Source: a virus (lineage: Duplodnaviria; Heunggongvirae; Uroviricota; Caudoviricetes). From it: a DNA stretch of 21,025 bases. The notes under the pieces were generated by a model. That model was not told the DNA's origin. It saw only the letters and a program-made list of their open reading frames with translations, and did not search any database. The position numbers and the translations under genes were made by a program. Where the stretch lies: positions 1 through 21,025 of IMG/VR virus record IMGVR_UViG_2534681835_000014; one strand, 5' to 3'. The first letter of the stretch is position 1; the number at the start of each line of letters is the position of its first letter. Of the stretch, positions 3,781 through 15,042 are shown one piece after another.

Positions 3781-3951
3781 TTTTTCGGGTCCTCCTGGTG
3801 TGGTGGGCCTGAACACGGGGCGGGCGGCGCGGAAAAAGGCGCATTTTTTGATTTTTATGGCACCATCACCACCAGTGTAAGTTGTTGATATATAGAAAAA
3901 TAAAAATTTTTAGTGTCGAATCTGGTTGTTTTTTGTTCATCACTGGTGTGT
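3781..3951. repeat. cos-like site copy 1 (helper prophage), about 150 bp upstream of the small terminase
   Basis: Contains CGGGTCCTCCTGGTG...ACGGGGCGGGCGGCGCGG, which resembles the cosQ-cosN segment at the right end of lambda as I recall it. Lies between lysis genes and terS, where cos sits in lambda-like genomes. Same block recurs at 12277 and 14814. Confidence 0.6.
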
Positions 3952-3976
3952 GTTTACATAATTTTCAGGGGGAGTT

Positions 3977-4453
3977 ATGGATCGTGAATTAAAAAATCTG
4001 CATCTGAATATTTCCCAACTGGCCGCATTATCCGGTGCTCATCGACAGACTGTTGCGGCTCGGGTAAAAAACATAAGCCCAGCCGGTGGTCATGAGAGCA
4101 ATCTCAAACTGTACCGACTGACAGATATCCTTGCCGAGCTGATGAAAGCTCCTCTGCCTGTAGATAACGAGGAAATGGATCCTCATGCGCGTAAAGCATG
4201 GTACCAGTCAGAACGTGACCGACTGAAATTTGAGCAGGAAACTGGTCAGCTTGTGCCAGTCAGTGATGTCAGGCGGTCCTTTTCTGTCGTGGTGAAAGCG
4301 ATAGTTCAGGTACTGGAAACCTGGCCTGACCGGCTGGAGAGGGACAGGGGGTGGACCGCATCACAACTGAATGAAGTACAGATTGTGGTTGATGAGATCC
4401 GCGACACACTGGAAAAGGCAGTCATTGACTGTTGTGATGAGGCCGATATGTGA
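3977..4453 (+). CDS. terminase small subunit (Nu1-like, N-terminal HTH)
   Basis: 158 aa. N-terminal LNISQLAALSGAHRQTVAARVK looks like an HTH. Strong RBS GGGGGAG. Stop overlaps the GTG start of the large terminase. Confidence 0.75.
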   Translation: MDRELKNLHLNISQLAALSGAHRQTVAARVKNISPAGGHESNLKLYRLTDILAELMKAPLPVDNEEMDPHARKAWYQSERDRLKFEQETGQLVPVSDVRRSFSVVVKAIVQVLETWPDRLERDRGWTASQLNEVQIVVDEIRDTLEKAVIDCCDEADM

Positions 4454-5520
4454 ATCAGGTGAACGAGAGCCATAGCCGCGCATCCGATATCTGGCGCGAA
4501 GTGGCCTCGCTGTTTCGCCCACCCAGCCGGTTACCAGTAGCGGAAGCCATCAGGCGTTATATGCGGGTTCCACGGGGAGCCAATACTTCCGGTCCGTGGG
4601 AGTCATCGCTGACGCCCTATATGATTGACCCCATTAATACATTATCAGCCCGTGAATATGACGCGGTGGTGTTTGTGGGACCTGCGCGAACCGGGAAAAC
4701 CGAAGGGCTGATTGATGGCTGGATTGTGTACGGCATCATCTGTGATCCGGCGGATATGCTGGTGGTGCAGATGACTGAGACGAAGGCGCGTGAGCATTCC
4801 AGAACGCGTCTTTCCAGGACGTTTCGCCACAGTCCGGAGGTCAGCAAGCGCCTCAGTCCTTCCCGTAATGACAACAACGTCCACGATAAAATGTTTCTTG
4901 ACGGCTCCTTCCTGAAGATTGGCTGGCCGTCGATCACCGTCTTTTCCTCTTCGGATTACCGTCGTGTGGCGCTGACGGATTATGACCGTTTCCCTGAAAA
5001 CGTGGACGGGGAAGGGGATGCCTTCACGCTGGCCTCAAAGCGTACCACCACCTTTATGTCCTCGGGGATGACCCTGGTCGAGAGTTCACCGGGGCGGGAT
5101 ATCACCGATACCAAATGGCGTTGTGGTGGCGCACATGAGGCACCGCCAACAACGGGGATCCTGTCACTGTATAACCGGGGAGACCGCCGCCGGTGGTACT
5201 GGCCGTGTCCGCACTGCGGGGAATATTTTCAGCCGGTGATGGATAACATGACCGGATACCGGAATAACCCGGATTTTGTGGCTGCCAGTCAGGCTGCCCG
5301 TCTGATGTGTCCGCATTGTCGCGGGCTGATCGCCCCTGAGCAGAAACGCGAACTGAATAACCAGGGGATCTGGCTTCGTGAAGGTGAACGGGCGGCGGCG
5401 GACGGCAGTATCACCGGAACGCCACGAAACTCCCGGATTGCGTCATTTTGGATGGAGGGTACATTTCTTACCTGTTTGTATGTTCTGGTGTCGATTCATA
5501 GTCTTTTCAATGAGTTGTGA
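4450..5520 (+). CDS. terminase large subunit, N-terminal (ATPase) part; gene interrupted after codon 337 by the integrated element
   Basis: Walker A VVFVGPARTGKTEG. Lambda gpA-like features including the Cys pair CPHCGEYF. Homology ends at ...IASFWMEG (5459); the last 19 codons run into insert sequence up to the stop at 5520. Confidence 0.85.
   Translation: MNQVNESHSRASDIWREVASLFRPPSRLPVAEAIRRYMRVPRGANTSGPWESSLTPYMIDPINTLSAREYDAVVFVGPARTGKTEGLIDGWIVYGIICDPADMLVVQMTETKAREHSRTRLSRTFRHSPEVSKRLSPSRNDNNVHDKMFLDGSFLKIGWPSITVFSSSDYRRVALTDYDRFPENVDGEGDAFTLASKRTTTFMSSGMTLVESSPGRDITDTKWRCGGAHEAPPTTGILSLYNRGDRRRWYWPCPHCGEYFQPVMDNMTGYRNNPDFVAASQAARLMCPHCRGLIAPEQKRELNNQGIWLREGERAAADGSITGTPRNSRIASFWMEGTFLTCLYVLVSIHSLFNEL
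5448..5459. repeat. left att core (direct repeat TTGGATGGAGGG)
   Basis: Exact 12-bp match to 15695-15706. Sits at the point where terminase homology breaks. Confidence 0.7.
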
Positions 5521-5618
5521 TTTTATGAGTTTCCTCTCTTTGCTTGATAATGAGTTAGTTTATCGCTTGTTATTGGCTTGAATGGACTACATGACGGACT
5601 AAAAAATGAGGGCGATAG

Positions 5619-12899: not shown

Positions 12900-14785
12900 A
12901 AACATGGTTTTCCATTAAGGCTATGGCAGATGTTGTCTATGTGCGCATTTATGACGAGATCGGCGGGTACGGTGTAAAAGCATCGGCACTTACTGACGAG
13001 ATCAACGCGTGTGGTTATGCGTCTGAAATCCATCTTCGCATCCATTCACCTGGTGGCGACATCTTTGAAGGGCTGGCTATCTATAACGCCCTGAAAAATC
13101 ATCCGGCAAAGAAAATTGTACACATTGAAGGCATGGCGGCTTCTATGGCCTCGTTTATTGCCATGTGTGGCGATCACATCGTTATGCCTGAAAACGCGAT
13201 GATGATGATACATGCCCCCCGTGGTGTTACTGCCGGAGTGTCGGGCGACGTTCGCCGCTTTGCTGACCTGATGGACAAGCTGGGCGACACGATGGCGGAA
13301 ACCTACGCCGGAAGAACGGGCAGGAGCAAACAGGAAATCACCGCCATGATGGAGGCGGAAACCTGGATGGATGGCAATGAGTGTAAGGCTAACGGCTTCG
13401 CAGATGAGGTTATACCCGCGATTACAGCAATGGCCCGAATTGAATCAAAACGAATCGGAGATTTTTCAAATATGCCGGAAAAAATTAAAAGCATGATCAG
13501 CCAGAAAACTACCAGTGGCGAACAGGAACGACTTAACGGCATCCGTGAATTGTTTGGCACGTTCAACGGAAGATATAACGACCTGGCTATAAGTTGTCTT
13601 GCTGATTCAGAATGTAGCGTTGAGAATGCACGCGAACGCCTTTTACTCGCTATGGGTAAAGAATCAACGCCAACAAACAAAACCACCCCCGCAAATCTTT
13701 ACTACGCGTACACGGATAACGGCAACATAACCGGCGATGCAATGCGCCAGGGGCTTAATGCGCGTCTTGGTCACGAACGGGCCGAACGCGGTAATCCTTA
13801 CGCCATGATGAGCCTTTTCGATATGGCACAGGCATCATTAACCCATCGTGGTATAAGCACGGGCAGCTACGGCACACGCTCGCAGATAGTAAACGCGGCA
13901 TTCACCCACAGCAGCAGCGATTTTACCGATATTCTTGCTGGTGGCGCTGAAAAATCAGTGCTTGCAGGCTGGGAGCACAGCGGCGAAACATTCCGCCAGT
14001 GGACGAAAAAAGGTTCCCTTTCAAACTTCCGGGAAGCCCGCCGCGTTGGTATGAATGGCTTCTCAACGTTAAACAAAGTGCCGGAAGGGGCAGAATATAA
14101 ATACATCACCACCAGCGATCGCGGTGAACCCATCGCGCTGGCTACTTACGGGAATATTTTCAGCATTACCCGCCAGGCGATAATCAATGATGACCTTGAT
14201 CAGTTATCAACGGTGCCAATGGCTATGGGCCGTGCAGCATCAAGAACGGTGGGAAATCTGGTTAATCTGGTGCTTACAGGCAACGTAAAACTTTCTGACG
14301 GAATAGCGCTGTTTGACAAAAAACACAGCAACCTGATTGAAGCAGGACTGACAACACCGGGACTTAGTGCAGCACGTCACCTGATGCGCACACAGAAGGA
14401 CAAAAATGGCGAAGTGCTGAATATTGCGCCTAAATTCCTTTTAGTTCCGGCAGCACTGGAAGATCGCGCGTTGCAGATGATTAACTCAACCGCACCTTTC
14501 GGGGCTGATAAAAACAGCGGGATCTTTAACCCGTATCACAAGCTACTTGATATCATCGTCGATCCCCGCCTTGATGATATCAGCGAAAAACAATGGTACA
14601 TGCTTTCCGCACAGGGAACGGACACAATCGAGGTGGCTTATCTTGATGGCAATGACGAGCCTTACCTTGAACAGCAGGAAGGTTTTATCGTTGACGGCGT
14701 GGCCTGGAAAGTCCGTATTGATGCAGGTGTGGCAGCTCTGGATTATCGCGGTATGGTCAAATCAGGCGGGACAGATTCACTATGA
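12896..14785 (+). CDS. satellite-encoded fusion of ClpP-like prohead protease and HK97-fold major capsid protein
   Basis: 629 aa. N-terminus has EIHLRIHSPGGDIFEGLAIYNALKNH (ClpP-like). C-terminus has EGAEYKYITTSDR and ATYGNIFSITRQAIINDDL, shared with the helper gene at 18476-20500. Confidence 0.85.
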   Translation: MKTWFSIKAMADVVYVRIYDEIGGYGVKASALTDEINACGYASEIHLRIHSPGGDIFEGLAIYNALKNHPAKKIVHIEGMAASMASFIAMCGDHIVMPENAMMMIHAPRGVTAGVSGDVRRFADLMDKLGDTMAETYAGRTGRSKQEITAMMEAETWMDGNECKANGFADEVIPAITAMARIESKRIGDFSNMPEKIKSMISQKTTSGEQERLNGIRELFGTFNGRYNDLAISCLADSECSVENARERLLLAMGKESTPTNKTTPANLYYAYTDNGNITGDAMRQGLNARLGHERAERGNPYAMMSLFDMAQASLTHRGISTGSYGTRSQIVNAAFTHSSSDFTDILAGGAEKSVLAGWEHSGETFRQWTKKGSLSNFREARRVGMNGFSTLNKVPEGAEYKYITTSDRGEPIALATYGNIFSITRQAIINDDLDQLSTVPMAMGRAASRTVGNLVNLVLTGNVKLSDGIALFDKKHSNLIEAGLTTPGLSAARHLMRTQKDKNGEVLNIAPKFLLVPAALEDRALQMINSTAPFGADKNSGIFNPYHKLLDIIVDPRLDDISEKQWYMLSAQGTDTIEVAYLDGNDEPYLEQQEGFIVDGVAWKVRIDAGVAALDYRGMVKSGGTDSL

Positions 14786-14791
14786 CAACAA

Positions 14792-14813
14792 GGCGGCACC
14801 AGCCGCCTTTTTT
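14792..14813 (+). terminator. rho-independent terminator after the satellite capsid gene
   Basis: GGCGGC-ACCA-GCCGCC hairpin followed by T6. Confidence 0.7.
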
Positions 14814-14895
14814 GCGGGTCCTCCTGGTGGGGTGGGCCTGAACACGGGGCGGGCGGCGCGGAAAAAAGCGCATTTTTGTGATTTTATCGTCATCA
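14814..14895. repeat. cos-like site copy 3 (inside the satellite): helper-identical core, diverged downstream arm
   Basis: CGGGTCCTCCTGGTGGGGTGGGCCTGAACACGGGGCGGGCGGCGCGG matches copy 1 except for one base (GGTGGGG versus GGTGTGG). Sequence after GCGCATTTTTG diverges but keeps a similar layout to about 14980. Confidence 0.6.
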
Positions 14896-15042
14896 TCATC
14901 ATGTGTGTAACCTGTTGTTTTTAATGTGGTTGATGCAAAAAAGATGATGGTTGTGGTTAATTTTTGTTCGACATCTTTTAGCGTGACAGATTCTTTACAA
15001 AAAATCTGAGCTTGTTTTCTTCACCAGCGCGATGGGGGCACA

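Follow-up and report, generated by a model that had tools for sequence, protein, structure and literature searches.

Which helper terminases can package a satellite that encodes no terminase of its own, and why should such an element hold two copies of a helper-like packaging signal? The question is raised by a 21,025-nt stretch of viral DNA (IMG/VR record IMGVR_UViG_2534681835_000014, positions 1 to 21,025; hereafter the window), in which an insert of 10,235 bp (5460..15694, + strand), by its gene content a helper-embedded phage-inducible chromosomal island (HE-PICI), interrupts the large terminase gene (terL) of a lambdoid prophage. The window is 99.9% identical to positions 2286845-2307870 of Escherichia coli O111:H8 strain 8E (NZ_CP077465.1), and from left to right it holds lysis genes, a cohesive-end site (cos) region, the small terminase gene (terS), the N-terminal part of terL, the insert and the C-terminal part of terL. 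A preliminary description had pointed to three cos-like copies, two of them within the satellite, and these were present, co-oriented, with cores at 3786, 12278 and 14815. Our analysis suggests that the satellite may be bilingual with respect to packaging, i.e., that it would offer one initiation site for each of two terminase specificities and terminate mainly at copy 3, a reading to which we assign a probability of about 45%.

The repeated unit is a 32-nt core, CGGGTCCTCCTGGTG(G/T)GGTGGGCCTGAACACG, found on the + strand at 3786-3817 (with one mismatch), 12278-12309 and 14815-14846. No core matches are expected in shuffled sequences, and the heptamer GGGTCCT occurs in the 21-kb window only at the three cores. 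Alignment with lambda identified this heptamer as homologous to cosQ, with the same layout towards the nick-side ACG/GGGCGG and with an upstream GATAAYCATTATCA common to lambda and copy 1; the gap from cosQ to ACG/GGGCGG measures 24 nt in all three copies as opposed to 23 in lambda. In IMG/VR, 54 phage contexts have the block ahead of terS, at a distance of 160-200 nt. Within the window, copy 1 lies between the lysis genes and terS, whereas copies 2 and 3 precede two satellite genes, orf64 and orf93, instead. Judged by this layout, all three blocks are packaging signals of the lambda type, arranged cosQ-cosN-cosB, and the likeness to the lambda cosQ-cosN region proposed in the preliminary description is borne out by the lambda alignment and by the position upstream of terS.

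Copy 1, the cos of the helper prophage (3781..3976, + strand), was delimited by the lambda alignment directly upstream of terS and is 99% identical to the cos region of phage CP-1639. It comprises cosQ GGGTCCT at 3787-3793, a cohesive-end segment GGGCGGGCGGCG predicted at 3818-3829 by analogy with lambda, and a type A cosB arm (3830-3976), in which an R3-like CACCATCACCACCAGTG (3861-3877) is followed by an exact minus-strand IHF consensus (3878-3890). Copy 2 (12271..12439, + strand) opens with the T-run of the SSB gene terminator (12271-12276), followed by cosQ at 12279-12285, a variant cosN segment AGGCGGAGGGGCG recognized by sequence comparison at 12310-12322, and an arm designated type A' (12323-12439) with CACCATCACCACCACT and, on the minus strand, an exact IHF consensus (12371-12383). 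Copy 3 (14808..15042, + strand) likewise opens with a T-run, that of the capsid gene terminator, and continues with cosQ (14816-14822), cosN GGGCGGGCGGCG (14847-14858) and a type B arm (14859-15042) that holds CGTCATCATCATCATG and an inverted GATGATG. These T-runs are the tails of hairpin terminators; a terminator scan of 12100-15400 listed no site on the + strand and missed both hairpins, which were read directly from the sequence.

The base differences described earlier between the copies were accurate. Specifically, copy 1 reads GGTGTGG and copies 2 and 3 read GGTGGGG, the T of copy 1 being a polymorphism present in other type A phages too. Copies 1 and 3 are alike around the nick (ACG/GGGCGGGCGGCG/CGG), whereas copy 2 (ACG/AGGCGGAGGGGCG/CGG) has two substitutions and one inserted base. 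Past GCGCATTTTT, copy 3 departs from copy 1, while the helper-like stretch of copy 2 runs 167 nt, to about 12439, at 92.8% identity to the CP-1639 cos. Copies 1 and 2 have an exact IHF consensus in the arm, and copy 3 has a version with one mismatch. Short inverted motifs, too short to prove R sites, were seen in copy 1 (CACCAGTG/CACTGGTG) and copy 3 (CATCATC/GATGATG), and none in copy 2. Three open reading frames (ORFs) cross the cos cores (14721-14924; 3659-3844 and 11960-12337, both on the minus strand), and over the copy 3 core the RefSeq annotation of strain 8E has a hypothetical protein of 67 aa (KP534_RS11755); the packaging signal is non-coding, and such calls on it are probably spurious.

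The arms carry the distinction on which our reading depends. Phage cos regions split past GCGCATTTTT into two classes, type A in the window helper, CP-1639 and 1720a-02, and type B in VT1-Sakai and several Stx2 phages, with only ~62% identity between the two arms. Between the two classes, TerS identity is 61% in residues 1-90, by analogy with lambda TerS the presumed DNA-binding domain, and 100% in residues 92-158. In all 54 phage contexts the arm type matched the TerS N-terminus (23 A/A and 31 B/B, 0 discordant), and the variable block is limited by the invariant core on one side and by the invariant TerS residues 92-158 on the other. We infer from this pattern two phage packaging specificities, A and B. 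The helper in the window has allele A of the TerS N-terminal domain (3977..4453, + strand; DUF1441, Pfam PF07278, E 2e-49; no match in a search against the PDB). A third helper type, C, hosts the same satellites and has a 179-aa TerS with a different N-terminus, another cosN and a terL that is 73% identical. In one type C example (L031, 10527-11300, minus strand) the cos reads GGCGGGTCCTTCCGGTGGGGTGGCCTGCCACGGGGCGGGAGCGTCGCGG, and no matching arm is found on the satellite.

The satellite holds one arm per phage allele, A' in copy 2 (93% to type A) and B in copy 3. The preliminary description had taken the copy 3 arm for an altered, satellite-type cosB. However, this arm is 88-91% identical to the cos arms of VT1-Sakai and Stx2 phages over ~200 nt, and in the related satellite L158 it is identical to the VT1-Sakai arm along ~130 nt. 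Since it matches the arms of these phages, we conclude from the alignments that the copy 3 arm is phage cosB allele B and that the satellite has no private cosB there.

To place this arrangement within its family, we sampled 80 loci via the orf93 protein, i.e., independently of cos sequence. The order SSB-cos(A')-orf64-ClpP/MCP-cos(B)-orf93, where MCP is the major capsid protein, was found as in the window in 17 of the 80 loci. Another 10 have SSB-cos(B), then a capsid module of ~3.1 kb like that of the island EcCICFT073, then orf93; the members of this group that were examined (L094, L095, L108) carry a lambda-type cos1 too, with rppA in L094 and an inverted lambda-type cos2 in L095 and L108. 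The cos sites lie at 2715 and 5156 in L094, and at 2587, 5027 and 5966 (minus strand) in L108. Among these relatives, as many as three cos sites, drawn from two cosN families, can share one PICI. One locus (L088) is a hybrid with SSB, a copy 2-type core joined to a B arm, and orf93, and 52 loci had no A/B-type core by blast, those examined (e.g., L090, L106, L138) having lambda-type cos sites. A rough pattern count gave at least 38 of the 80 loci with two or more cos cores; together with the published cos1 and cos2 of EcCICFT073 (PMC6092414, PMC6739421), this does not support the earlier view that a satellite with two such cos copies is unusual.

At a coverage of at least 80%, the dual-cos module was present in 143 of 5,426 complete E. 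coli genomes, with hosts that include type A, B and C helpers and chromosomal PICIs with other int and rep modules. The composite of prophage and satellite seen in the window recurs in 39 complete E. coli genomes, O157:H7 and O145:H28 among them. Two chromosomal PICIs carry the same late module at 96-97.5% identity (L158, 4341-14083; L159, 5233-14086), near tRNA-Ile/mug and between cspD and clpS, with different integrases and replication proteins (DUF927 primase, RepA helicase). Since the module occurs at chromosomal sites with unrelated integration and replication modules, it is no by-product of helper embedding but a conserved cassette that moves between PICI backbones.

The two satellite copies differ in how they are conserved. 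Across the 17 relatives, cosQ, the cosN flanks and the arm of copy 3 are nearly invariant. As a benchmark of constraint, we compared the window with its most divergent relative (L129), from which it differs by a synonymous divergence of 0.23-0.39 and with which its non-coding spacer is 76% identical. In this comparison, identity was 98-100% for the copy 3 arm, about 90% for the copy 2 arm and 78%, i.e., near neutral, for copy 2 from cosQ to ACG. By these figures, copy 3 is either strongly constrained or often exchanged with phages, constraint on the copy 2 arm is moderate, and the copy 2 cosQ region shows none.

The left core of copy 2 occurs as three haplotypes among the 17 relatives. The first equals the phage consensus; the second, ACGGGTCC...GGCGGGG, has an intact cosQ and is also found on the SSB-proximal type B cos of other relatives; the third, GTAGGTAC...GTCCACG, has cosQ changed from GGGTCCT to AGGTACT and is carried by 10 of the 17. 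The interior of copy 2 cosN varies in sequence and in length (12-14 nt), and CACG/GGGCGG and CGCGGAAAAAGG flank every variant. Decay was considered as the source of this interior variation and rejected, as phage cos sites (12-13 nt) and the only cos detected in L088 vary likewise. A link between helper type and the cosQ state of copy 2 was also rejected, on the grounds of O157:H7 strain F3113, where a type A helper goes with a cosQ-mutant copy 2. Two changes are private to the window, G>A at 12310 and A>G at 12329, where strain 8E and 19/19 relatives have G and A. In total, 14 differences separate the window from strain 8E, and 2 of the 14 fall within 20 nt of the copy 2 core (~0.01 expected), with 12310 adjoining the predicted nick.

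Exchange at the cores has left traces in nature. The hybrid locus L088 (5740-6282) has one cos with a copy 2-type core (GGGCGGAGGGGCG) and a copy 3 arm, followed by orf93, and no capsid module; by its structure it would be either a deletion between copies 2 and 3 or an ancestral single-cos form. In L078 (= L053), 5700-7800 runs from the lysis genes through a cos core with a type B arm and orf93 to attR and the terL C-fragment. This order is consistent with recombination between a helper cos and copy 3 that removed terS, the N-terminal part of terL and almost all of the satellite.

In lambda-type packaging, initiation requires cosN and a cosB matching TerS, whereas termination requires cosQ and cosN (PMC9026076, PMC6739421). 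Under our reading, a terminase with TerS-B would initiate packaging at copy 3 and one with TerS-A at copy 2. Copy 3, with cosQ, cosN and arm intact, would also be the usual termination site, and the mutated cosQ found in copy 2 of most relatives would keep a packaging run begun at copy 3 from ending too early, 7.7 kb on. The satellite would in this way be mobilised by either kind of helper in enterohaemorrhagic E. coli (EHEC) cells with many lambdoid prophages. For EcCICFT073, the terminase was inferred to skip successive cos sites while packaging concatemers into full-size heads, with capsid filling suggested as the control (PMC6092414). A fuller version of this division of labour, in which copy 2 would serve TerS-A for initiation only, so that its cosQ is dispensable and the loss of it adaptive, copy 3 would serve TerS-B initiation and common termination, and the family would widen its helper range by collecting A', B and lambda-type plus Rpp cos sites, is offered tentatively as a possible extension.

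Several observations weigh against two specificities in one satellite. The arm and the TerS N-terminus are within 300 bp of each other, so the A/B co-variation could reflect mere physical linkage. Fixed differences (CAGTGT>CACTAT) set the arm of copy 2 apart from every one of the 16 type A phage haplotypes, at positions that do not vary among the phages, and the inverted pair CACCAGTG/CACTGGTG known from the phage arm is absent from it, the distal CACTGGTG being missing. Arm A was in no relative found as the sole cos, and the type A helper of strain F3113 houses a satellite with a cosQ-mutant copy 2. A molecule running from copy 2 to copy 3 would have ends of 13 nt and 12 nt that are not perfectly complementary; its 2.5-kb terminal redundancy could let recombination circularise it. 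Finally, deletion of the second cos in EcCICFT073 raised transfer, so a second cos need not help (PMC6092414).

Four other explanations were weighed against this reading. Copy 2 may be a recombination relic, left when the orf64-capsid module was acquired or reshuffled at exchange-prone cos cores, with only copy 3 in use. On the one hand, natural core recombinants exist (L088; L078/L053), the left-core haplotypes of copy 2 travel with the variable SSB module, cosQ is mutated in 10/17 relatives with the cosQ..ACG segment evolving near the neutral rate, the arm has its fixed differences from phage arms, transfer of EcCICFT073 rose when cos2 was deleted (PMC6092414), and the SSB-proximal cos was lost in EcCICFT073, where only TTTTTTGCG is left (L154, about 25245-25262). 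On the other hand, copy 2 is kept in 17/17 loci of the unbiased sample and elsewhere in the family, among others in a lineage at 23-39% synonymous divergence, although a 70-nt direct repeat 2.5 kb away can delete it. Its arm is ~3x more conserved than neutral (about 11 differences in 104 nt versus about 28 expected), its nick-flanking bases and exact IHF consensus are retained, and the SSB-proximal slot is occupied by an intact type B cos in other relatives. A relic would call for another role of the arm, e.g., as the upstream region of the orf64-capsid operon, or for a young age, and we consider it unlikely, if still worth serious attention. The proposal of the preliminary description that copy 2 is a decoy, which would mean that its arm binds TerS-A without productive cleavage, draws terminase from the helper cos and adds to interference, seems to us quite improbable. 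A conserved arm beside a freely varying cosQ and cosN interior is seen family-wide, but an initiation-only site or a relic would account for it just as well. With a primase and SSB of its own for replication, the satellite would provide many copies of the site, but every cos-bearing satellite competes for terminase already, and a separate decoy is unneeded. The copy 2 arm is of the resident helper type in the window, yet the module is equally conserved in satellites of type B and C helpers and at chromosomal sites, and the candidate R3 of copy 2 differs from the phage R3 at phage-invariant positions.

We also weighed redirection of the Rpp type, in which copy 3 would have a private cosB read by a satellite protein together with helper TerS, as in EcCICFT073. 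The gene orf93 does stand exactly in the terS/rpp slot after copy 3, and the kinship with EcCICFT073 is real (77% amino acid identity for orf93, 85% for SSB). However, a tblastn search of the window with RppA found no Rpp homolog, rpp genes encode winged helix-turn-helix proteins of 139-154 aa as opposed to the 93-aa helical orf93 product, whose three-helix model has no fold match, and both satellite arms match phage arms, that of copy 3 being a phage arm itself. Moreover, EcCICFT073 has orf93 beside rppA, and among its cloned post-ori genes only c1503 (rppA) inhibited lambda (PMC6739421). Redirection of this kind is thus very improbable here. Practically no weight is left for a generic terminator or repetitive extragenic palindromic (REP)-like repeat unconnected with packaging: copies 2 and 3 start right behind hairpin and T-run terminators, but the homology to lambda cos and the location only upstream of terS or in PICI late zones rule this candidate out, and an Rfam search with the block matched no family.

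By its boundaries and gene order, the insert is an HE-PICI of the EcCICFT073 family, inside terL of its helper; Pfam and PHROG matches and the strain 8E annotation served to identify it. The intact terL of CP-1639, VT1-Sakai and Stx2d_112808 is collinear with the window up to 5459 and again from 15695, with a 12-bp overlap. The 12-bp repeat TTGGATGGAGGG flanks the insert at 5448-5459 (attL core) and 15695-15706 (attR core), and excision would restore terL. This leaves an N-terminal terL fragment with the GpA ATPase domain (4450..5459, + strand; Pfam PF05876), interrupted by the satellite, and a C-terminal fragment with the GpA nuclease domain (15695..16820, + strand; Pfam PF20454). To the right follow a gpW-like gene, a portal gene and the helper gene for a fusion of ClpP protease and major capsid protein (18329-20500); the lambdoid prophage that encloses the window has recE, kilR and ydaE on its left flank, as at the Rac locus. 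The satellite genes are all on the + strand and comprise a tyrosine integrase gene int (5619-6856), alpA-like, Bro-N, icd-like and DUF4222 genes, a D5-type primase gene (9482-11287) and the SSB gene (11816-12238), after which come the late genes, i.e., a 64-aa ORF, a ClpP/capsid fusion and a 93-aa ORF. The co-oriented int, alpA, primase-replication and late zones of a PICI are all present, the length falls in the PICI range of 10-20 kb, and there are no terminase and no tail genes. In the window, a 1-nt deletion in an A-run at 6120, relative to strain 8E and all relatives, splits the integrase into ORFs 5619-6131 and 6152-6856, and a further 1-nt deletion lies at the end of the primase gene (11285). 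Because of the integrase frameshift, terL remains split and excision is doubtful; the satellite is probably locked inside terL in this strain, and the three cos sites of the window are probably idle there, unless integrase and terminase come from other prophages.

The late genes have close counterparts in relatives. The gene behind copy 2, orf64 (12705..12899, + strand; phrog_4934), encodes a small satellite-specific protein and overlaps the capsid gene start by 4 nt; orf64 and its spacer had no DNA homolog among 50,697 phage records. By eye the protein is ribbon-helix-helix-like, while a single-sequence model (pLDDT 64) has two helices only. EcCICFT073 also has a small pre-capsid ORF (68 aa; L154, 25463-25669) that is unrelated in sequence, and both show a strand-helix-helix pattern resembling ribbon-helix-helix DNA binders. 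The satellite fusion of ClpP-like prohead protease and major capsid protein (12896..14785, + strand) is 52% identical to the helper fusion at the amino acid level and is without ~35 residues of the linker between protease and capsid parts (helper residues about 274-308), a shortening that might bear on capsid size. The gene behind copy 3, orf93 (15043..15324, + strand; phrog_1561), occupies the slot that terS has after a phage cos and is the last gene before attR, as in 80/80 sampled relatives and EcCICFT073. Even in relatives with 10% divergence in orf93, the preceding 100 nt do not vary. Searches with the orf93 sequence in Pfam, NCBIfam and PDB found nothing, and Foldseek matched no PDB entry at E<=0.001 to its single-sequence AlphaFold model of three helices (pLDDT 72). 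The third exact IHF consensus of the window (15322-15334, minus strand) lies just past orf93, in the attP-side region of the satellite.

The nearest characterized system, EcCICFT073, shares with the window satellite the order int-alpA-...-DUF4222-primase-SSB-late zone-orf93, two cos sites with helper-like cosQ and cosN, a late-zone capsid gene and the same terminator hairpin before a cos. It differs in its lambda-type cosN (GGGCGGCGACCT), in its private cosB arms and in RppA, which reads cos1. Its cos sites are inverted and flank rppA (in CFT073, cos1 precedes rppA and an inverted cos2 precedes the orf93 homolog), whereas those of the window satellite are direct repeats with arms A and B that flank a capsid gene, without Rpp. 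Both EcCICFT073 cos sites are functional: cos1 is needed for transfer, deletion of cos2 raises transfer and the double deletion abolishes transfer (PMC6092414, PMC6739421). An R3-like CACCACCACT in copy 2 (12360-12369) shares a 10-nt identity with the arm of the Rpp-responsive cos1 (GACACCACCACCACTTGA; L154, about 27590-27610), where type A phages have CACCACCAGT, and the RppA helix-turn-helix (NRTTIRAW) is similar to a helix of DUF1441 TerS (HRQTVAAR). Rpp and cos1 may derive from a type A-like TerS/cosB pair, or the likeness may be due to chance in a (CAC)n-rich motif.

Among HE-PICIs, for which insertion sites in gene A were reported by Tommasini et al. (2023; PMC10111431), the short att identity block, the four-zone organisation and the captured capsid gene are the same as here. 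That paper has one 258-bp helper-like cos region (11capE) and no dual cos or cosB alleles, whereas the dual-cos module of the window is also found in non-embedded PICIs. Lambda and phage 21 likewise have a common core, a variable cosB arm and TerS DNA-binding domain, and a conserved TerL-binding half of TerS (PMC9026076); they differ in that TerS of the window is DUF1441, not of the lambda Nu1 family, and that the A/B specificity here is drawn from sequence only. SaPIbov5, SaPIbov4 and P4 are satellites that carry the cos of their helper, and the window satellite would likewise be packaged via a helper-type cos without a satellite terminase subunit; SaPIbov5 has a capsid homolog and SaPIbov4 two putative cos sites (PMC6092414). 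These elements and their hosts are unrelated, and no case of two cos sites matching two helper specificities has been reported for them. Cross-packaging among prophages provides the context in O157 Sakai (PMC2669165), where the window element is not covered. Multiple cos sites per PICI are therefore already known; what we did not find in the literature searched is arms that equal two phage cosB alleles, the absence of Rpp and an asymmetric constraint.

The helpers able to mobilise a satellite set the spread of its genes and its interference with phages. The sole mechanism described for cos-PICIs of E. coli is Rpp redirection to a private cosB, and the window element suggests another, simpler route, in which helper cosB alleles would be copied and one of each kept. 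It occurs in clinically important EHEC lineages (O111, O157, O145) with many lambdoid prophages, including Stx phages, that carry these two TerS alleles. Embedded cos copies are also direct repeats that appear to have deleted terminase genes in nature (L078), one route of prophage decay. If true, our reading would account for PICIs often having more than one cos, and it would provide a natural system for the study of packaging specificity, with one terminase core and two DNA-binding cassettes.

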